A stretch of 44,853 bases of DNA from IMG/VR virus record IMGVR_UViG_3300045988_031537. One strand, written 5' to 3'. Of the stretch, positions 1,468 through 17,441 are shown piece after piece. Under the pieces are notes generated by a model that saw nothing but the letters and a program-made list of their open reading frames with translations, did no database searches and was not told the DNA's origin. Within the stretch, counting starts at the first letter, position 1. Each line of letters opens with the position of its first letter. The DNA is from a virus (Duplodnaviria > Heunggongvirae > Uroviricota > Caudoviricetes). The position numbers and the translations under genes are program-made.

Positions 1468-1574
1468 TAATGTGATAGAATAATTTTGCGCCTAGTGTCG
1501 CACACGAAAAGCGGGTGGTTCCCGTCTGGCGCATTTACCATTAACCTGTAACCTCTTAACCAAAGGATTAAAGA

Positions 1575-1991
1575 ATGAAACTTTCTGATTTTTATTACGA
1601 AGCTGAGGCAGAAAAAGGCGCCCGTATGCCGATACCACTGAAAGACGGCACCGATTCAGGGGAATGGCTGAACGTTGTTTCACCGGAGGCAGACGTTGCC
1701 GTTAAAGCTATGAGGGCGTTTACACTTGCGTACCGCGCGGCATTAGGTAAATTGAAACCGCTTCGTGATAAATGCGAGGAACTGAAAGATTTCTCGGAAT
1801 ACAACATCAAGATGGAAGACGCCGCAACGGACCTTAACCGCCAGTTAGCGCTTGAACTGGTTAACGGTTGGAGTCTCGACGATGAATTTAATAAAGAGAA
1901 CCTGAATACTCTTTTCTCACAATATAAACGACTCGCTGAACACGTTGTTGTTTTCCACAATGAACAGCTTCACCAATTGCAGGAAAAGTAG
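1575..1991 (+). CDS. Tail assembly chaperone (lambda G-like), inferred from position
   Basis: 138-aa ORF immediately upstream of the tape measure gene; ends GAA AAG TAG. Confidence 0.5.
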   Translation: MKLSDFYYEAEAEKGARMPIPLKDGTDSGEWLNVVSPEADVAVKAMRAFTLAYRAALGKLKPLRDKCEELKDFSEYNIKMEDAATDLNRQLALELVNGWSLDDEFNKENLNTLFSQYKRLAEHVVVFHNEQLHQLQEK

Positions 1992-1996
1992 ACGCG

Positions 1997-2356
1997 TTGC
2001 TCCAGTTTGCCCGTTGGAACTTCATAACCCGCCACAAACGGCGGGAGTTTGACAGTATCGCCGACGGGCATAAAGCCGCGCTAATTGCTATGGGGGTTAT
2101 GCAAGACGCGCCGGAAGCAACGCAGGACACAGGGCCGGAATGCCCCCCTGAGCTATTAACCACCTTCGAGAAGTACAGGGAAATCAAATTCACCCGCCGA
2201 GTGGACGATGATGGCATCAAGATGTACCCGCGCGAACAGTTAAGATGGTCGGATTTAGTGGCATACAGCACCGTTTCAGGCCAGAATATATGCATGTTTG
2301 AATCTGACATCATCATGAGCTTAGACGCTATTTTCGAGGGTAGAAACGATGGCTGA
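1997..2356 (+). CDS. Probable -1 frameshift extension of the tail chaperone (lambda G-T-like)
   Basis: ORF in the -1 frame relative to 1575-1991, open from 1964, no ATG start with RBS, ends overlapping the tape measure start. Start coordinate is the track's TTG, not a claimed initiation site. Confidence 0.4.
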   Translation: MLQFARWNFITRHKRREFDSIADGHKAALIAMGVMQDAPEATQDTGPECPPELLTTFEKYREIKFTRRVDDDGIKMYPREQLRWSDLVAYSTVSGQNICMFESDIIMSLDAIFEGRNDG

Positions 2357-4688
2357 TGTAGCTAGTTTAGTTGTAAAGGTATCAGAGCAAGGCGCGAAAG
2401 CTACATCGGACCGTCTTGATAATCTCTCCAAGTCGGCAAAAGTAGCGGGGGCAGCCGTAGCTGGACTCGCTTCAATTGTCGCCGCGACAGCGTACAAGGC
2501 CGCACAGGAACTGGTAGACTCCCAACGGCAACTGGACAAGATGTCCGCCAGCCTGAAAACACTAACCGGAAGCACGCAGGGGGCAAGACAGGCGTTAAGC
2601 ATCCTGCAAGACTTCGCGCGCGACACTCCGTATGGCCTTGAACAGGCGGTAGAGGGATTCCGTAAACTGGTGGCTCTCGGCCTTACCCCCTCAGAAGAAG
2701 CGTTGCGCTCCTATGGCAACACTGCCGCTGCTATGGGTAAAGACCTTAATCAGATGATTGAGGCCGTTGCGGACGCCAGTACATTTGAATTTGAGCGCCT
2801 TAAAGAATTCGGCATCAAGGCCAAGCAAAACAAAGACGATGTTGAATTTACATTCCAGGGCACCACTACGGTAGTTAAGAAGAGCGCTGCCGACATCGAG
2901 CAATACCTGCTCAACATTGGTAACGTAAACTTCGCGGGGGCTATGGCGGACCAGGCCAACACACTTAACGGCGCCATCGCCAGTGCCAGCGACTCATGGT
3001 CGCAGTTAAAAATGACACTGGCTACCAGCCTTGATGTTGGCGCTCTTGCGGAGCCTATCCGGTACATCGATGATTTAATCCAGGAACTTAACGCACAGGT
3101 TGCATCCGGTGAACTTGCCGCGGAGATGCGTATGTGGGGTGACATCGCGTCGGAAGTAGGAAGCGCGATAGAGATGTCGTTCGACGCGGCATTTGGTTTT
3201 GTAGGTGACGCGATAAATGGACTGAATGAACTTTGGGATTTTAGCAGTAAAAGTATCACCGACAGCGGCGAACAAACGGCGACAACCATCGCGGAATCAG
3301 CTGCCGATGCGCTCGATTTCATCGCAGAAGAATTTACCGCGATGGAGCGCTTCTTTGAAGATATGGTTAAAGGGGCACAGGACGCTGGCCGGTTGGTGAA
3401 AGCTGCCTTCACACCAGGGGAATCTGTAGACGTAGCAAAAAACATTAACTTCCAGCTAGGGATGGCACTGGATACTCAGCGCGATGTTGCGGACCTGACC
3501 CGTAAAAGTTTCCGCGAACAGGTGGAGGCTCAGCAAAATATTGTCGCGCTTAAACGCGCAGCGTATGACATCGACAAAGAAGCCGCTAAGGAAGAAGGGC
3601 TTAGTAAATTTAAGGTAACTGGTACTGGTGGCGGGCCCGAAGATGATAATGCTGGTGCAAAAGCCTCCAAGAAAGCGGCGGACGCGTTCGAGCGCCAGAA
3701 GAAAGCCGCTGAGGATTTCTACTACCAGTCGATTCATCTCAATGATGACGTATTCCAGAAAATAGAAGCCAACCAGGAACAGCAGCTAACCAAGCTACAG
3801 GAGTTCTATGGTAATCAGCTTCTTAGCGACCAGCAGTACGAAAACGCTAAAACTCAGATTATGCTGGAGGCTGACACCGCACGTCAGGAAGAACTCGCCA
3901 AGCGGGAGAAAGAACGGCAGGAGAAGAACCAGAAAGGCGAGGACTTCATGGCTCAGATTATGGGCCAGAATGCTGCCGAGCTTGAGCTTCTGGAGATTCA
4001 GGAACAACAAAAACTGGACGTTGCTGATAGATACCGTGAACAGAATCTGATTAACGAGGAGCAGTACCAGGCAGCGGTTAACGCGATAAACGACCAGTAC
4101 GCATTGAAACGTGCCAACGCTACCGGTAACGCTTTTGGCATGATGGCGGACAACATTAAGTCATCGCTAGGCGAGGCGTCCTCCGCGTATAAAGCATTCG
4201 CTATCGCTCAGGCCACAATAGCCACATACACATCCGCCATCGAGGCTTATAAATCTGCGTCCGCGATTCCTATTGTTGGTTGGGTGCTTGGTCCTGTGGC
4301 CGCGGCAGCAGCAGTAGCAGCAGGTCTGGCTAACATCGGCAAGATTCGTTCGGCCCGTGAACAGGGTGGTCAGTTATCTGCGGGGCAGGCTTCCACCATC
4401 GCCGAACGCGGTAAACCAGAAGTTATCATGCCTGCTGGTGCATCGCGCGTACGAACTGCGCAGCAGATGAAAGAAATTATGGGGCAAAATGGGTCTTCTT
4501 CTGGCCCATCTAATGTTACCATTGTAAATAACACATCGAGTCAGATTGGCAACGTATCCACTGAGCAAGATGATGAAGGCCGTTTGCGTATCATCATCGA
4601 GGAGCAAGTAGCTGCGTCTTTGCAGAACAGCAACAGTAAGATTAGCAAGGCCCGCAAGGCCACAAGAAACGCGCCTGGTTTCAAGTAA
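2349..4688 (+). CDS. Tail tape measure protein
   Basis: 779 aa, Ala/Gln-rich and predicted helical, C-terminal hydrophobic segment, located between chaperone and distal tail genes. Confidence 0.85.
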   Translation: MADVASLVVKVSEQGAKATSDRLDNLSKSAKVAGAAVAGLASIVAATAYKAAQELVDSQRQLDKMSASLKTLTGSTQGARQALSILQDFARDTPYGLEQAVEGFRKLVALGLTPSEEALRSYGNTAAAMGKDLNQMIEAVADASTFEFERLKEFGIKAKQNKDDVEFTFQGTTTVVKKSAADIEQYLLNIGNVNFAGAMADQANTLNGAIASASDSWSQLKMTLATSLDVGALAEPIRYIDDLIQELNAQVASGELAAEMRMWGDIASEVGSAIEMSFDAAFGFVGDAINGLNELWDFSSKSITDSGEQTATTIAESAADALDFIAEEFTAMERFFEDMVKGAQDAGRLVKAAFTPGESVDVAKNINFQLGMALDTQRDVADLTRKSFREQVEAQQNIVALKRAAYDIDKEAAKEEGLSKFKVTGTGGGPEDDNAGAKASKKAADAFERQKKAAEDFYYQSIHLNDDVFQKIEANQEQQLTKLQEFYGNQLLSDQQYENAKTQIMLEADTARQEELAKREKERQEKNQKGEDFMAQIMGQNAAELELLEIQEQQKLDVADRYREQNLINEEQYQAAVNAINDQYALKRANATGNAFGMMADNIKSSLGEASSAYKAFAIAQATIATYTSAIEAYKSASAIPIVGWVLGPVAAAAAVAAGLANIGKIRSAREQGGQLSAGQASTIAERGKPEVIMPAGASRVRTAQQMKEIMGQNGSSSGPSNVTIVNNTSSQIGNVSTEQDDEGRLRIIIEEQVAASLQNSNSKISKARKATRNAPGFK

Positions 4689-4691
4689 TAA

Positions 4692-4710
4692 TATGGCCCT
4701 TTCGGGCCAT
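4692..4710. terminator. Hairpin between convergent genes (candidate bidirectional terminator)
   Basis: ATGGCCC-TTTCG-GGCCAT inverted repeat just after the tape measure stop. Confidence 0.4.
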
Positions 4711-4713
4711 AAC

Positions 4714-5460
4714 TTACTCGCTGCGTACTTTTCCGTTACATAGCTCCGTGAACTCAGCTATTATCTCGCTGTTGGCCACCATCCACTCACTGGCCCCATC
4801 AAAGTTGCTTAGCTCCGCCGATACGTGTGTGCGGTGAAAGTATCGCTCTAACATACGGCAACGAGCACCATTAGCGTCTTGGTATACACTAAGCACATGG
4901 AACTCAAACGGAGTGGAGCGCTCCAGTTGAGCAAGTCGTTGTTTTAACTTGTTAGTAATACCTATTTTAAGGTATTTACCACATGCAGAAAGAAGTCCGT
5001 AAATGTACCCTGGTTTGTTAGAGTCGTAGCCGTGTCTGGCGCACGACGGACAACCATGCCTGTGCACTAAAATATTATTAACCCCTGTAGCAAACACCCC
5101 GTGGTCATTACATGCGCGTATCGCTTTGGAGATTTTGTTTAGGTACGCGCCTCCTTCAAAACCCACGAACGTATATCGAACATCCGCGGATTTTATTTGC
5201 TCAATAACGGCATCTGTATTCTTGCGGTAGGCAGCCGCCGCGGCTTCTCGACTGCATTTCATACACCCGTGTCCTCCAGAGATGCTACGGGCTATAGCTG
5301 AAAATTCACCGTGGGACGGGCAAATAAGTCTAATCTTGCTAGTCGAGTCAATGTACTCACTACCGTCATAACTTGCGGATATTGTGTACTTCCCGCCGTG
5401 TTTCTTTAAATCTAACTCGACCATTTTCTTCCGTTCTTCCCAACCAATTTTAACGCTCAT
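4714..5460 (-). CDS. Putative homing endonuclease with T5orf172/GIY-YIG-like C-terminal domain and two N-terminal Cys/His repeats
   Basis: C-terminal PGYIYGLL...GKYLKIGITNKLKQRLAQL; N-terminal repeats CPSHGEF...CMKC and CNDHGVF...CPSC; AAGGAGGAG RBS before the start. Antisense to the surrounding tail genes. Confidence 0.55.
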   Translation of the reverse strand: MSVKIGWEERKKMVELDLKKHGGKYTISASYDGSEYIDSTSKIRLICPSHGEFSAIARSISGGHGCMKCSREAAAAAYRKNTDAVIEQIKSADVRYTFVGFEGGAYLNKISKAIRACNDHGVFATGVNNILVHRHGCPSCARHGYDSNKPGYIYGLLSACGKYLKIGITNKLKQRLAQLERSTPFEFHVLSVYQDANGARCRMLERYFHRTHVSAELSNFDGASEWMVANSEIIAEFTELCNGKVRSE

Positions 5461-12022: not shown

Positions 12023-12204
12023 TTCTTACCTTCGCTTTTCTTGAAACTGCGCTTTATATCCGGCAGAGTGTAGCATCGTGACTTTTCGTATTTACCGTCC
12101 GAGCTTACCAAAACAAAGCTGTTGCCGTCTTTTGATATGTACTCGATGGTGAAAGTATTGAATGAGTGTATGCTGTATATTTCATCGCCAACATTAAGTT
12201 TCAT
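12019..12204 (-). CDS. Hypothetical protein
   Basis: 61-aa ORF coupled to the upstream helicase gene. Confidence 0.4.
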   Translation of the reverse strand: MKLNVGDEIYSIHSFNTFTIEYISKDGNSFVLVSSDGKYEKSRCYTLPDIKRSFKKSEGKK

Positions 12205-13631
12205 TTCTTACCTCGTCTCTTCATGTAATTAAGCAATTCTTCCTGTACAGATTTCTTCTCGTCGGTGCGCGCGGCAACAACCTCATCCAGCGTGTCTTTA
12301 GCGACGATGTGATAGAGGAACACCGGGCGCTCGTGTCCAGCCTGTTTCTGACGAACAGGGCCTATGCGCTCGACAACCTGCAAATAGTGCTCGAGGTTCC
12401 ACCCCTGACTTATAAACGCCAGATGATGCCCTCCATCCTGTAAATTCAAACCATGCCCGGCTGACGCGGGGTGCACGCATAAGATTTCGATTTCACCGCG
12501 GTTCCACGCTTCCATCTGCTTATTGCCCTTCGCACCTTTGGCGAACGCCTGTGCCTGAGGGAATCGCTTAAGGATACGCTCAAGTTCGTGCTTAAACTGA
12601 TAGGCCACTAGTAACGGTGCACCCTGTAGCTCCTCCACAATCGACTCTAGCGCATCCAGTTTCGTGTCGTGCACTTTCTCCCAGTCTTTGGTTGCTTCGC
12701 CGTCCGGTCCTGATACATACACAGCACCAGATGCAATCTGTAAACACTTCGACGTCTTTGCTGCCGCGTTAGCCGCTTCGACTTCTCCGCTCTCCAGCTC
12801 AGCGAATAACTTCTCCTCCATATCGATGTACGCCTGACGCGCTTTCTTCGGCAGGTCGATTTCAACCGGCACAATAATCGGCGCTTCACAACCGAACCAC
12901 TCGGCAGGGTCGATGGTCAGGCTGATGTCTTTCATCTTCTGATGAATTTCATTATCTGCACCCGGTCGCGCATGATATTCACGCACCATAGCCGACTTAC
13001 CTTTCTGTACCGAGTTAAACCAGCGGTCTGTGAATGCCGTATACGAAGAGCCGAGGCGCTCGCCAGCGTCGATAAACCAGTTCTGACCCCACAAGTCTTT
13101 GAGGCCGTTTGGTGACGGTGTGCCTGTCAGGTTGATGAAACGCTTAACCTTTCCGAACGCAACCTTGCTGAGCGCCTTTGCCCGCTTGCTACCACCCGAA
13201 CGGCTGCGGAACGATTTAAGCTTCGTGCTTTCATCGGCAACGATAACCGTAAAAGGCCAGTCGTCTTTGCCGTAGTAGTCAATTAGCCACTCGATAACTT
13301 CGTAGTTAGTGCACACCACGTTAGCATCTGACTCCAGCGCCGCGATGCGGCGCTTCTCCGAACCAGTTGCATCTACGACACGCAGACAAGGGAATTGCCA
13401 TTTCTCTTGTTCAGCGGGCCACGTACCGGACGCAACACGTAACGGGGCAAGGATTAACACGCGGTCCTCTTCCGTAAGCTGCCCGTTGCGGAACAGGCGG
13501 TTGAGCACCCACATAGTGGAGGAGGTTTTACCTCCCCCCATTCCGCACCAGATATTACAGCGCGGGTGTTGCAGCATGAACGAAGTCATGAGCTTCTGGT
13601 ACCCTCGACGGATAAATTTAGACATGTTCAA
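12201..13631 (-). CDS. SNF2/DEAD-like superfamily 2 helicase
   Basis: Walker A GMGGGKTSS, DExx box VADESTKLK and C-terminal helicase motifs. Confidence 0.75.
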   Translation of the reverse strand: MNMSKFIRRGYQKLMTSFMLQHPRCNIWCGMGGGKTSSTMWVLNRLFRNGQLTEEDRVLILAPLRVASGTWPAEQEKWQFPCLRVVDATGSEKRRIAALESDANVVCTNYEVIEWLIDYYGKDDWPFTVIVADESTKLKSFRSRSGGSKRAKALSKVAFGKVKRFINLTGTPSPNGLKDLWGQNWFIDAGERLGSSYTAFTDRWFNSVQKGKSAMVREYHARPGADNEIHQKMKDISLTIDPAEWFGCEAPIIVPVEIDLPKKARQAYIDMEEKLFAELESGEVEAANAAAKTSKCLQIASGAVYVSGPDGEATKDWEKVHDTKLDALESIVEELQGAPLLVAYQFKHELERILKRFPQAQAFAKGAKGNKQMEAWNRGEIEILCVHPASAGHGLNLQDGGHHLAFISQGWNLEHYLQVVERIGPVRQKQAGHERPVFLYHIVAKDTLDEVVAARTDEKKSVQEELLNYMKRRGKK

Positions 13632-14225: not shown

Positions 14226-14353
14226 TCCGGCACCCACAGATAAATTGCGATGAACATACCCAATACGGCTACCATCATGCCGTATTGCCCCTCGTGACAG
14301 TAGACACCGGCGGCGAATCCCGCCAGTACCGCGATAATCAGTTTACTTAGCAT
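14222..14353 (-). CDS. Small hydrophobic peptide (43 aa)
   Basis: MLSKLIIAVLAGFAAGVYCHEGQYGMMVAVLGMFIAIYLWVPE; ATG overlaps the 3' end of the polymerase gene. Confidence 0.3.
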   Translation of the reverse strand: MLSKLIIAVLAGFAAGVYCHEGQYGMMVAVLGMFIAIYLWVPE

Positions 14354-17300
14354 AGCGCTTCATCTCCGCACCTTCCGCTACAAGAGGGAACCCCCCCGCC
14401 CACTCTGGCAACGCACACATTAATTTTTCCAGTTCAGGCACCGTGTAATCCGGCGTATCTGGAGTTTCACATACCAGTTCATCGTGTACCGAAAGCACGA
14501 TGGGATACCCGCCACCCTCAACATTAATCATCGCATATGCGAGTAAATCACGGCACAGCGCCTGAACAATGTTTTCGCAGGCTTTGCCGCCGTGTGTGTA
14601 CAGGGTAGTCCATTGGCGGGTTAACTGGTTTTCACCTTGGTACTTGATTCGCACATTCGTGTTTACCCGTCCGTCTTCGTCTGTTTCTTTTGTCACGCTA
14701 ACGCCGATTCCTGGATACGAGAGGATACGGCCCGACGGCAACTCCATACACAACCACCAACCGGGAACCTTCCTACCGGATGAATCGGTTTCTACTGTTC
14801 TCCAGATTCGGATAGCGCGCTCGCCATTCTTGCGCAGATGCGCCCCCGCCCAAAATTCACGACCCGGATTTCTTACAGCGGCTAAAATACCGTCTTTGAG
14901 GTCGCGCCAGAACGCTACTGTTTCCGGGTGTGACTCGCGCCACATACGCTTGATTGCATCGCAGGTGCGCCACACTTTCTTGTCCAGAATATACGACGGT
15001 CGGTCGTCCTTTTCACCTGGATGCGGGGGGTGCTTGGCTTCCTGGATGCGCGCCCACTCGTACCCGCGTGCAGTGGCCGACCAGATATGGTCCGGGAATG
15101 TACCGTCCATTGTTTTTGCCATCTCAATAAGGTCAAGACCTAGGTTTTTAGCAAACGTAACGAACGCTCCAACGCCGCCCTCGTAGCCGAGGCCAAGCTC
15201 GCAGTTATGCGCCACAAGAAAGCCAGAGTCTGAGGCTATAAGAAAACGGTTGCCGTCTTCCACATCAATCAGGTCGTACACCGGCTCGCAGTAGGTTAAT
15301 TTCCCGCTCAAGTTCAGCAATGCGGGCAACGGCTGCATCATACTTTCGTTGAAGCTCGGGTATTTGCCGTCTGTTTCGGCAGTTTTCAGAACGGCTGACA
15401 AACCGAATGTTTCCAGGTTCGTAGTTACCGTCTGTGTCGATTCTATCCATTTCGAGGTTCGGGTCATCCCAGCCTTCCAGAGTTTGAACATATCTAAGAA
15501 AAGACCTTTTATCAGTCCTCCACTGGTCGAATACCGTGATGCCTCTTGCCCCATAGTTTTTATAACCCTTATCCCTGGGGCTTGTTGTTCGCGTGATCGC
15601 CGCTGACAGCCGGTTGAGTAATCGCGTTCTGTGTGCATCATCCGGCATTGCGTCTTCGTAGCAGAAATACTGTTTACGATATTTTTTTGTTGCTTCAAGG
15701 GCGCAGCGGTTGCATTGAGTGGTTTTACCCGCTCTGACGTTGTCATAATAGACCCGCCCCGGCATCTCTCCGCAATCACATTGGACGAGTAGTTGTCTTT
15801 GGCCTTGTCGTTTTGGCAACTCGCGCAGGATAACCAAGCGTCCATACCTCTCTCCAGGGCTAGGCCCATCATATATCTGTTTGAAGCGAGTTGCTTTGCC
15901 TGCTTCCAGGAATGCGCCAAGATTTTGTGATCTTCGGTCATTAGCACCCCGTCCACATTTATTACCGGTTTCCACCCCATAAGGTGCGCGCCTTTTGTAT
16001 TCACCCATTTTTCACCGCTCCATACTTTATCTGTTGATGTAACCGCCATAATATCCTTAAATCCGCCATCGGTCAAAACCTGGGTATGACGGTGAAGGCA
16101 CGCTTTACCAATCTGGCGCAAGTCTTTACGTTCTTTCTTAATGTCATCAGGGTCCATACCGAACATCTTGCCTGCGGTTACACAGTAAATATCCAGTCCG
16201 GCGCGGAACGTATCGAGCGCGGTTTCTTCACCTGCCAGCCACGCAAGCCCGCGGCCTTCAACGTTAGAGTAATCGGCGACGACAAACTTATGCCCGGCTT
16301 CCGGTATTATGCAGCTACGCACAGTAGATGCCGTTAGTTTGGCTACATCAAAACGGCGATGGGCGCGGCCCTTAAGTAACGCTGAAATGCCTTTATCCAG
16401 CTCATCATCATGATAGTAACCGCGTGCCAGGTTCTGCGGCTGGAAGCCTTTACCTGCCCATCGCAGAGTACGTTTTGCCCCACCGTACTGCAAGCAACCG
16501 CGACGGCGGTCGTCCGAAGAGCGGCCCCGCAGCAGCGGGTTATATTTCGTGGACGCCGTGGACGCGGCCCCGAGGCGCATTTCGATAATCGTGCGTGCGT
16601 CGTCCGGTAAATCATCGTCGGCCAGCAGGTCATTCAGCGTTGACTTCTGCACGTTGTGGATTCGGTGCGCAGGGGCAAGTTCGCGCAGAATCGGCAGAAA
16701 GTCTTTACCAGTAAGCGAGCCGCCGTATTTGCGTTGGGCCTCTTCCTGTAACTGCGCTTTGTGTTTCTCCACGGCTTCAATCGCGGCTTCTGCCAGTGCC
16801 ACGTCAACCTTAAACCCGCGGTCGTTGATTAACTGGTCCAGTTCCAGTACACGGTCCTCGAACTCCGAGTTACCCCAACGTGGCAGCTTATGGAATACCT
16901 CACGCATCGCGGTAATATCGCTCACGGCGTACTTGATGAACAACGCCCATTCATCAGGGTGCGTCTCGGCGGTGTAGCGTCTGATTTTGTAGTTCTTCGG
17001 TGTCGGTTTAGAGAAACGCTGAATCAGCGCCTTGCCACGCTTATCCTTCGCATTGTCAGCAGACACGCCCAGCACTTCGCACAATGAGTCAAGTGAACCC
17101 GGCAATGCATGACGAAACGCCCAAATCATCGTATCAATGGTGTTGCGTACCGGAATATCAAAGCCCCAGCAGTGCTTCATTATGAGCCTGTCGAACATTG
17201 AGCCGTTGTGCCACACCATCTTAATGCGACTGTTAGGCTTAACCAGACGACGTAACGCGCGGTGCAAATCGCCCGGCATGTCACTGCCGTCGGTGCAATC

Positions 17301-17441
17301 CCACACCTGCACAGGCTCGTCGTCAAAAGCGTATGTACAGATAAGCACTTCGGTAGTTGGATGCTCGGCGTAAGCGTAGGAGCCGACTTTCTTTAAATCG
17401 GCTTCGGAGAATGTTTCAAAGTCTAAGAACAGGTAACTCAT
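14343..17441 (-). CDS. Family A DNA polymerase (3'-5' exonuclease plus polymerase domains) interrupted by an intein
   Basis: Exo motif DFETFS; polymerase motif A ADYSNVEGR, motif B RQIGKA/CELGLGYEGG split by the intein, motif C VHDELV. Confidence 0.85.
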   Translation of the reverse strand: MSYLFLDFETFSEADLKKVGSYAYAEHPTTEVLICTYAFDDEPVQVWDCTDGSDMPGDLHRALRRLVKPNSRIKMVWHNGSMFDRLIMKHCWGFDIPVRNTIDTMIWAFRHALPGSLDSLCEVLGVSADNAKDKRGKALIQRFSKPTPKNYKIRRYTAETHPDEWALFIKYAVSDITAMREVFHKLPRWGNSEFEDRVLELDQLINDRGFKVDVALAEAAIEAVEKHKAQLQEEAQRKYGGSLTGKDFLPILRELAPAHRIHNVQKSTLNDLLADDDLPDDARTIIEMRLGAASTASTKYNPLLRGRSSDDRRRGCLQYGGAKRTLRWAGKGFQPQNLARGYYHDDELDKGISALLKGRAHRRFDVAKLTASTVRSCIIPEAGHKFVVADYSNVEGRGLAWLAGEETALDTFRAGLDIYCVTAGKMFGMDPDDIKKERKDLRQIGKACLHRHTQVLTDGGFKDIMAVTSTDKVWSGEKWVNTKGAHLMGWKPVINVDGVLMTEDHKILAHSWKQAKQLASNRYMMGLALERGMDAWLSCASCQNDKAKDNYSSNVIAERCRGGSIMTTSERVKPLNATAAPLKQQKNIVNSISATKTQCRMMHTERDYSTGCQRRSREQQAPGIRVIKTMGQEASRYSTSGGLIKGLFLDMFKLWKAGMTRTSKWIESTQTVTTNLETFGLSAVLKTAETDGKYPSFNESMMQPLPALLNLSGKLTYCEPVYDLIDVEDGNRFLIASDSGFLVAHNCELGLGYEGGVGAFVTFAKNLGLDLIEMAKTMDGTFPDHIWSATARGYEWARIQEAKHPPHPGEKDDRPSYILDKKVWRTCDAIKRMWRESHPETVAFWRDLKDGILAAVRNPGREFWAGAHLRKNGERAIRIWRTVETDSSGRKVPGWWLCMELPSGRILSYPGIGVSVTKETDEDGRVNTNVRIKYQGENQLTRQWTTLYTHGGKACENIVQALCRDLLAYAMINVEGGGYPIVLSVHDELVCETPDTPDYTVPELEKLMCALPEWAGGFPLVAEGAEMKRYAK
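15204..16100 (-). mobile_element. Intein (299 aa) inserted in polymerase motif B
   Basis: Starts CLHRHTQVLTDGG (block A), has TEDHKILA (block B, TxxH), VYDLIDVEDGNRFLIA (block F) and ends LVAHN followed by Cys+1; codons checked at both junctions. Confidence 0.7.
15265..16008 (-). CDS. HNH-family homing endonuclease encoded inside the intein in a different reading frame
   Basis: Cys cluster CDCG...CNRC, AP2-like GYKNYGARGITVFDQW, HNH-like MDRIDTDGNYEPGNIRFVSRSENCRN; frame is -1 relative to the polymerase. Confidence 0.6.
   Translation of the reverse strand: MGEYKRRAPYGVETGNKCGRGANDRRSQNLGAFLEAGKATRFKQIYDGPSPGERYGRLVILRELPKRQGQRQLLVQCDCGEMPGRVYYDNVRAGKTTQCNRCALEATKKYRKQYFCYEDAMPDDAHRTRLLNRLSAAITRTTSPRDKGYKNYGARGITVFDQWRTDKRSFLRYVQTLEGWDDPNLEMDRIDTDGNYEPGNIRFVSRSENCRNRRQIPELQRKYDAAVARIAELEREINLLRAGVRPD

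Follow-up and report, generated by a model that had tools for sequence, protein, structure and literature searches.

The DNA analysed here is a stretch of 44,853 nucleotides (nt) from IMG/VR virus record IMGVR_UViG_3300045988_031537 (hereafter the window), a near-complete genome of a Kagunavirus-like (Guernseyvirinae) siphophage of Escherichia coli, whose nearest relatives are about 93% identical. Its minus strand carries a family A DNA polymerase gene, recognised by Pfam matches to DNA_pol_A and to a 3'-5' exonuclease domain, into which a predicted intein has been inserted at motif B, and the centre of this insertion is also read in a second frame as an open reading frame (ORF) for an HNH-like protein:

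14343 to 17441, minus strand: family A DNA polymerase precursor (1032 amino acids, aa), from the ORF list, host of the intein
15204 to 16100, minus strand: predicted intein of 299 codons in motif B, 897 nt in frame between Ala447 (GCG) and Cys+1 (TGC), polymerase aa 448-746
15265 to 16008, minus strand: nested gene for an HNH-like putative homing endonuclease of 247 aa, in the -1 (= +2) frame and wholly within the intein

The arrangement is interpreted, with a probability of about 0.8, as a class-1 intein in motif B whose homing nuclease is a separate -1-frame gene nested in the intein centre, and not an in-frame domain. A preliminary description made from the sequence alone had already placed a 299-aa intein at 15204-16100 and a separate overlapping -1-frame ORF at 15265-16008, and the ORF was recovered at exactly these positions.

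The boundaries of the insertion were defined by comparison with related phages, as the preliminary description had proposed. The intein-less alleles of phages fBC-Eco01 and S119, which encode polymerases of 733-734 aa, read RQIGKACELGLGYEGG across the site, so the insertion comprises exactly 299 codons between Ala and Cys at the junction RQIGKA/CELGLGY (a slash marks the point of insertion). It opens with Cys1 (CLHRH), carries TEDH in block B and VYDLID in block F, and closes with VYDLIDVEDGNRFLIASDSGFLVAHN, the terminal HN being followed by Cys+1. In a polymerase-frame alignment of 40 diverse homologues, C1, T55, H58, D276, H298 and N299 are invariant, and the +1 residue is Cys in 39, with Ser in the remaining one (L039). 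Conservation in this alignment is restricted to about 95 N-terminal and about 26 C-terminal residues, which divides the intein into three parts:

15816 to 16100, minus strand: N-terminal splicing region with blocks A and B, covering intein aa 1-95 and conserved when read in the polymerase frame
15282 to 15815, minus strand: central linker, intein aa 96-273, with zero conserved columns in the polymerase frame, stop-free
15204 to 15281, minus strand: C-terminal splicing region, blocks F and G (VYDLID...LVAHN), with Cys+1 at 15201-15203

A mini-intein profile made of the N- and C-terminal splicing regions and searched against all PDB sequences gave 18 matches, exclusively to inteins or bacterial intein-like domains. 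The best of these were the Spl DnaX mini-intein (E = 2.3e-6), Neq pol (1.4e-4) and Mtu RecA (2.8e-4), and the DnaE, NrdJ-1 and DnaB inteins were also matched. Three observations count against the intein assignment or its function: no Pfam or NCBIfam Hint model scored over threshold on any single sequence; structure prediction gave no confirmation of a Hint fold, the single-sequence AlphaFold2 model of the intein reaching a pLDDT (predicted local distance difference test) score of 34; and an unstructured linker of about 175 aa could hamper splicing. The sub-threshold Hint-type matches (Vint, E = 0.24; Hint_2, E = 0.086) begin exactly at Cys1 in the relatives. Single-sequence phmmer searches of PDB sequences found nothing useful, and the polymerase-frame intein used as a protein-database query returned only 4-6 close matches. 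The Hint match at the junctions, which the preliminary description had treated as decisive, came from the mini-intein profile with its matches to solved inteins, and the single-sequence profiles stayed below threshold. An intein is annotated at these boundaries in several GenBank records, including that of Salmonella phage vB_SenS-Ent2 (NC_023608), where it is an 'intein' mat_peptide at the homologous boundaries and the nested ORF is unannotated. From its alleles, blocks and profile matches, the insertion in motif B of this phage DNA polymerase (family A) is a predicted class-1 intein, and the 299-aa intein of the preliminary description is borne out on all three counts. That more than 150 isolated phages are viable with this insert in their catalytic motif B makes protein splicing probable.

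The record of Sodalis phage SO-1 (NC_013600; L092) describes a homologous locus in other terms, labelling both gp38 (1552-4740) and the nested gp39 HNH endonuclease (2498-3256) 'type I self-splicing intron'. This annotation favours a group I intron with an HNH homing endonuclease, and the existence of out-of-frame HNH insertions that have no splicing domains (PMC11855218) lends some credit to a related idea, an unspliced loop tolerated by the polymerase like the ShiLan insertion. The intron was rejected because no Rfam model matched at E <= 1 in 14900-16400 and the host ORF is continuous; on the same grounds the SO-1 record misreads an intein as a group I intron. Motif B, the O-helix of Pol I-type polymerases, is catalytic, and a loop of 299 aa splitting it is unlikely to be tolerated. 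Both ideas also face a host frame that is open and selected to stay open, intein blocks that are all invariant, and a profile that matches solved inteins, and they are considered very improbable.

The nested ORF encodes a protein with a disordered N-terminus, a Zn ribbon, a helical region, a beta-beta-alpha-like core and a C-terminal coiled coil. It is matched by PHROG families labelled HNH endonuclease at E-values from 1e-46 to 1e-19 (phrog_374, 1e-46; phrog_3377, 7e-22; phrog_2081, 2e-21), and the protein database contains 301 homologues of it, 230-260 aa long. Among 38 aligned homologues, with a mean identity of 49%, 28 columns are invariant, and these columns include a CxC...CxxC zinc ribbon, an HRxRLLxR helix, YGxRG and DR...YEPGN...N..N.R. 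Two features of the protein can be placed on the DNA:

15703 to 15780, minus strand: Zn-ribbon-like CxC...CxxC, nested aa 77-102, with C77, C79, C99 and C102 invariant
15367 to 15456, minus strand: beta-beta-alpha-like core, nested aa 185-214 (LEMDRID...YEPGNIRFVSRSENCRNRR), from the AlphaFold2 model and the invariant residues

The AlphaFold2 model of the nested protein has a mean pLDDT of 82, with residues 1-45 poorly modelled (35-65; below 50 for residues 1-21), and forms the core from strands at 185-189 and 201-205 and a helix at 206-212. Core residues R189, Y196, P198, N200, F203, N209, N212 and R214 are invariant in the 38 homologues, as is Y152, and the Asn residues sought as metal ligand or structural Asn of an HNH motif are present as N200, N209 and N212. 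The core motif is found in free-standing relatives too.

Beyond the PHROG annotation, little supports the HNH label. The Pfam models HNH, HNH_3 and their relatives, and AP2 (PF00847), gave no match to the window protein at E <= 1 and none to any of the 38 members at E <= 0.1; a Foldseek search of the PDB with the model of the nested protein gave no significant match; and D188-R189 stands where strand 1 ends and the canonical general-base His would be expected. NCBIfam likewise gave no match for the nested protein, and the profile of the nested family showed a weak likeness to the COX5B zinc ribbon and to nothing else among PDB sequences. All 38 nested homologues have R189, and it is conserved as well in 15 relatives that are either free-standing or nested in the +1 frame. 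The canonical His is also missing from PacI, an HNH enzyme that reportedly uses a Tyr. The product of the nested ORF is best described as an HNH-like putative homing endonuclease, whose nuclease activity is unproven because the canonical general-base His is replaced by an invariant Arg across the family. The 'HNH-AP2' label of the preliminary description is not upheld: the protein has no AP2 domain, the HNH half rests on PHROG annotation, and neither half is matched by Pfam. One lineage (L058 / L059, 2076-3149) has a longer intein of 358 aa with a longer nested ORF of 312 codons, counted from the homologous start.

The polymerase frame stays open across the nested ORF more often than chance would allow. 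When the nuclease protein was held fixed, its synonymous codons were resampled or permuted and polymerase-frame stops were counted, 4.5-5.0 stops were expected in the window and none was observed (P(0) = 0.0005-0.003); in the reverse test, with the polymerase-frame protein fixed, 10-13 stops were expected (P(0) < 5e-5). The same holds for 40 non-redundant inteins, each with 0 polymerase-frame stops across its nuclease ORF against a mean expectation of 4.6. The preliminary estimate of about 10 expected stops was about twice too high for the polymerase frame, but the shortfall of stops against chance that it was meant to express is upheld.

Substitutions among nine close relatives follow a different frame in each part of the intein. 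At the N-terminal end (intein aa 1-30) 15 of 22 variable sites lie at polymerase third positions, as do 11 of 12 at the C-terminal end (block F-G, 15204-15266), and in the centre 69 of 116 variable sites lie at polymerase position 2, which is nuclease position 3. Comparison of the centre with L015 (SO-1-like) gave 43 synonymous and 26 non-synonymous changes in the nuclease frame and 9 and 65, respectively, in the polymerase frame. Judged by these patterns, the intein ends are evidently selected as intein and the centre as nuclease, and the polymerase-frame centre appears to be constrained only to stay stop-free. A test for lowered linker hydrophobicity was uninformative, as its null of stop-free synonymous permutations had almost no variance because the nuclease protein largely fixes linker composition.

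These data also bear on the possibility that the two frames are an artefact, in which two compensating indels mask a conventional intein with an in-frame HNH domain. One record, that of Salmonella phage SS3e (AY730274.2; L093 / L018, 160-3260), counts in favour of it: with 899 nt its intein region differs in length from the usual 897 nt by 2 nt, its polymerase is broken up into three ORFs, and one of these, P0007 (268 aa), joins the intein N-terminus to the nuclease frame. The same intein is, however, held at 82-99% identity by 163 independently sequenced phage genomes. Of 80 viral contigs fetched with the nuclease family as query, 66 have a nuclease identity of at least 34% (34-99%), and 65 of these show an ORF of 900-1100 aa that encloses the nuclease ORF with an unchanged -1 offset, the exception being SS3e itself; four metagenome contigs and EBPR siphovirus 2 share this nesting, at nuclease identities that reach as low as 34%. 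In addition, the nuclease frame has a stop one or two codons upstream of the ATG, and over its disordered, unconserved N-terminus it is the polymerase frame that is conserved. The frame-specific substitutions, the 163 genomes and the 65 of 66 contigs exclude sequencing indels, and the artefact, refuted by the same frame offset across independent genomes, has next to no probability left. The stop-count tests and this evidence together confirm that the open polymerase frame is kept by selection, as the preliminary description had argued. The SS3e indels are probably sequencing errors in an old record; if real, they would produce an in-frame intein-nuclease fusion with a broken polymerase.

The start of the nested gene, and the candidate signals for its expression, lie within codons of the N-terminal splicing region:

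16006 to 16008, minus strand: ATG start of the nested gene, overlapping the conserved Trp32 codon (AAA TGG)
16018 to 16021, minus strand: Shine-Dalgarno (SD)-like GGAG, 9 nt upstream of the ATG, in the Trp27-Ser28 codons, with a putative function in initiation
16048 to 16076, minus strand: candidate for a sigma-70-like promoter, TTGACC-17 nt-TATTAT, within block A at the codons Leu9-Thr10 ... Asp16-Ile17-Met18

Because the nuclease frame reads TGA two codons upstream of its ATG (16008), the nested ORF cannot begin earlier. At the homologous position, 61 loci have a start codon (ATG in 39, GTG in 16, TTG in 5 and CTG in 1), located on the Trp codon in 60 of them, and the SD-like element takes the form of purine-rich TGGGAYGG in most relatives, derived from conserved Trp-Asp/Ser-Gly codons.

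The promoter candidate, found by a consensus scan, agrees with the consensus at 10 of 12 positions and lies about 40 nt upstream of the ATG. In the close relatives, with the window included, the -35 and the -10 hexamers are each intact in 8 of 9. Across 40 loci, Leu9 is encoded by TTG in 21 of 37 against a background of 14.6% (p = 3e-9) and codon 16 ends in T in 26 of 40 against 17% (p = 2e-11), both by tests that ignore phylogenetic non-independence; 16 loci score at least 9 of 12 promoter matches at the fixed position. Two points weaken the case for a promoter, namely that these synonymous-site tests disregard shared ancestry and that a promoter scan of the whole region was not enriched over shuffles (4 found, 2.7 expected). 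The conserved position and codon choices suggest that TTGACC-17 nt-TATTAT may act as a promoter.

Programmed ribosomal frameshifting offers a different route to a nuclease product: ribosomes would slip to -1 near GAA AAA TGG and return before block F, giving a conventional intein-endonuclease fusion. The five-A run (G AAA AAT G) situated exactly at the start of the overlap in the window is what such a model would call for, but no canonical X XXY YYZ heptamer is present in the zero frame and the run is missing in most relatives, for example GGGGAGGAATG. A second, compensating shift would also be needed before the stop at 15265-15267, inside block F, and the polymerase frame would need no openness, yet it is open in 40 of 40 inteins; what is conserved instead is valid NTG starts with SD-like purine runs. 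With no conserved slippery site, stops just upstream of the start and an open polymerase frame, frameshifting was rejected as highly improbable.

Under the interpretation of a separate nested gene, ribosomes in the polymerase frame would read straight through the insertion, and the Hint segments of about 95 and 26 aa would excise the whole 299-aa insert. The approximately 175 aa between these segments would be an unconstrained linker, with the absence of a stop codon as its sole requirement. The 247-aa HNH-like protein would be made separately by internal initiation at the ATG on the conserved Trp32 codon, with the SD-like element, and probably a sigma-70-type promoter of its own, written into the splicing-domain codons upstream. 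The nuclease would then cut intein-less polymerase alleles of co-infecting phages near motif B, and repair would copy the intein and the nuclease gene together, resulting in homing.

The distribution of the intein among phages fits a mobile element. The intein-less junction occurs in 475 records (query covered at 80% or more in a single aligned place) and the intein in 163 records, and the closest genome overall, that of vB_VIPECOMC04 (93.6% identity), is intein-free. Copies of the intein in Salmonella Jerseyvirus phages match that of the window at 97-99% identity, against only 76-92% for the exteins of the same phages. Third-position divergence is 2-12% in the single-coding intein ends compared with 25-46% in the flanking exteins (p <= 1e-4), and since it is low where a single frame is read, the low divergence of the intein is not a mere product of dual-coding constraint. 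These sequence comparisons indicate a recent lateral transfer of the intein. The splicing domain and the nuclease diverge together (r = 0.62), and therefore both appear to travel as a unit. Identity in the upstream flank climbs from 0.77 to 0.93 towards the intein, a gradient suggestive of co-conversion that is confounded by the conservation of motif B itself.

The contigs that carry metagenomic homologues of the nested protein are mostly about 0.9-1.3 kb long, close to the length of the intein, and longer ones often end at most a few hundred bases from it. Short contigs of this kind would be expected from assembly-graph bubbles caused by intein presence/absence polymorphism in natural populations.

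This mobility is relevant to the possibility that the nested ORF is a decaying relic, in which a free-standing nuclease gene once invaded and what is now inherited vertically is a mini-intein with a junk linker from which no nuclease is made. The absence of the canonical catalytic His and of any significant match to solved nucleases would suit such a history. It agrees poorly with the purifying selection on the nuclease frame (43 synonymous against 26 non-synonymous changes, compared with 9 against 65 in the polymerase frame), with 28 invariant columns at 49% mean identity, with an ORF that is intact in all 65 nested viral-contig copies, and with start codons that are kept. Moreover, the Arg that replaces His is also invariant in free-standing and evidently mobile relatives, and the intein is far less diverged than its exteins and polymorphic among close relatives. 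A relic of this kind is considered unlikely, and a nested gene still selected as a nuclease is preferred.

In motif B, homologous units of intein plus nuclease are found at no fewer than three neighbouring positions, following K+1 (the position used in the window), K+2 and K+5. Units at these positions were seen in L003, L006, L008, L025, L027 and other loci, each with Cys at +1. Either the insertion site has moved or the nuclease accepts several entry points. One further member of the family (L073, 2271-3140) lies in an extein that does not resemble motif B (LLLNRPSE/C...HN/CYVLFRHF), and its host gene or site may be different from motif B.

A homologous intein is also found at another site of the polymerase (YGGK/CEN...) in Caulobacter phage KcrB gp057 (L004, 1047-3929), in the APSE-7 polymerase (L005, 717-3698) and in L078 and L081. 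Inteins of this KcrB/APSE-7 type contain a related HNH-like ORF of 219-222 codons in the +1 frame, with a C-terminal helix-turn-helix-like tail, and their polymerase frame is open. In the window, polymerase aa 953-956 (about 14577-14588; GGKA/CENIVQ) form an empty copy of this second site, with Cys at the would-be +1 position.

A broader reading of the family, favoured with moderate confidence, is that of a large and ancient clade of phage Pol I inteins that have no endonuclease domain of their own and have been overprinted by an entire nuclease gene with expression of its own, in the -1 frame for the motif B clade and in the +1 frame for the sister clade (APSE-7, KcrB). The promoter, ribosome-binding site and start would be set by synonymous choices in splicing-domain codons, and the linker of about 175 aa would be selected only to remain stop-free. 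If this is true, the overprinted clade would be a stable two-gene homing unit and would capture in nature a stage on the way to canonical inteins by which the splicing domain came first and the nuclease invaded later.

HNH nucleases in inteins were reportedly first described by Dalgaard et al. in 1997. As in canonical inteins with in-frame LAGLIDADG or HNH nucleases, the predicted Hint domain here is interrupted between blocks B and F by nuclease DNA, and the element would home into a conserved site of an essential gene. Unlike in canonical inteins, in which the nuclease is a domain of the same polypeptide, the nuclease would here be a separate polypeptide, and an unconserved linker stands in its place.

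Inteins with a homing endonuclease in a separate frame have been described in actinobacteriophages, where an endonuclease VII-like gene lies 'in frame 3', an arrangement its authors called previously unreported; they proposed that a free-standing nuclease gene invaded the intein (Gosselin et al. 2025, bioRxiv 10.1101/2025.01.02.630785). As in those inteins, a full intein here holds a nuclease ORF between its splicing blocks, on the same strand and in another frame, with the host frame open, and the in-frame translation of the nuclease region gives no recognisable structure. In contrast to those inteins, the hosts are phages of enterobacteria and of other, uncultured hosts, and the extein is Pol I motif B. 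The present element further goes beyond that case in being ancient and selected in both frames, with its own start and SD-like and promoter-like signals. The preliminary description was right to call the architecture unusual, but it is no longer unreported (bioRxiv 10.1101/2025.01.02.630785).

The same group described a 'hidden HNH' in mycobacteriophage DNA methylases, ShiLan, which is out of frame and has no splicing domains (Arsenault et al. 2025, PMC11855218). Both cases place an out-of-frame HNH gene in a stop-free host ORF and raise the same question of translation of the hidden ORF. The ShiLan insertion has no detectable splicing domains and is thought to be a tolerated loop, whereas canonical intein blocks flank the nested gene here; leaderless initiation was proposed for ShiLan, compared with an SD-like element and a promoter-like site in the present element. 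Salmonella, Escherichia, APSE and Caulobacter phages are unmentioned in both 2025 papers, and literature searches, with subscription journals outside their coverage, returned nothing further on this element.

Splicing elements and nucleases that are separate translation units and travel together are also known from fractured genes, in which a free-standing homing endonuclease gene lies between the halves of a split intein (Dassa et al. 2009, PMC2677866), and from LAGLIDADG ORFs lying antisense within the DnaX intein of Synechocystis (Gorbalenya 1998, as cited by another paper). Both support the invasion of a pre-existing intein by a nuclease. They differ from the present element, which has a continuous host ORF where fractured genes have a broken one and splice in trans, and which has about 740 nt read in two frames of the same strand where the DnaX ORFs lie on the opposite strand.

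Out-of-frame intein nucleases were thus first described in 2025, and the present element is a new, independently evolved and much larger member of that kind, not a categorically new one. New here are the frame-specific selection, the embedded start with SD-like and promoter-like signals, the multiple insertion sites and the +1-frame sister clade. Separately framed intein nucleases are not limited to actinobacteriophages; as an architecture of phage replication genes they are widespread and long-lived. Where gene callers or surveys of inteins expect the nuclease in frame, they will mislabel such elements, for example as 'mini-inteins', 'group I introns' or split polymerases. The element is also an unusually clean example from nature of a stretch, about 740 nt long, that is read in two frames, of which one appears selected for its protein and the other for the absence of stops only, with candidate expression signals embedded in the codons. 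Its E. coli and Salmonella phages grow easily, and in them the association of nucleases with inteins, splicing with long disordered linkers and gene exchange between phage genera can be put to the test.

Outside the polymerase, the SNF2-type helicase of the window (12201-13631, minus strand; 476 aa) is intein-free, and its homologues in Salmonella phages SETP3 and Ent2 are about 820 aa long and annotated as intein-containing, so that the helicase intein site is empty in the window phage.

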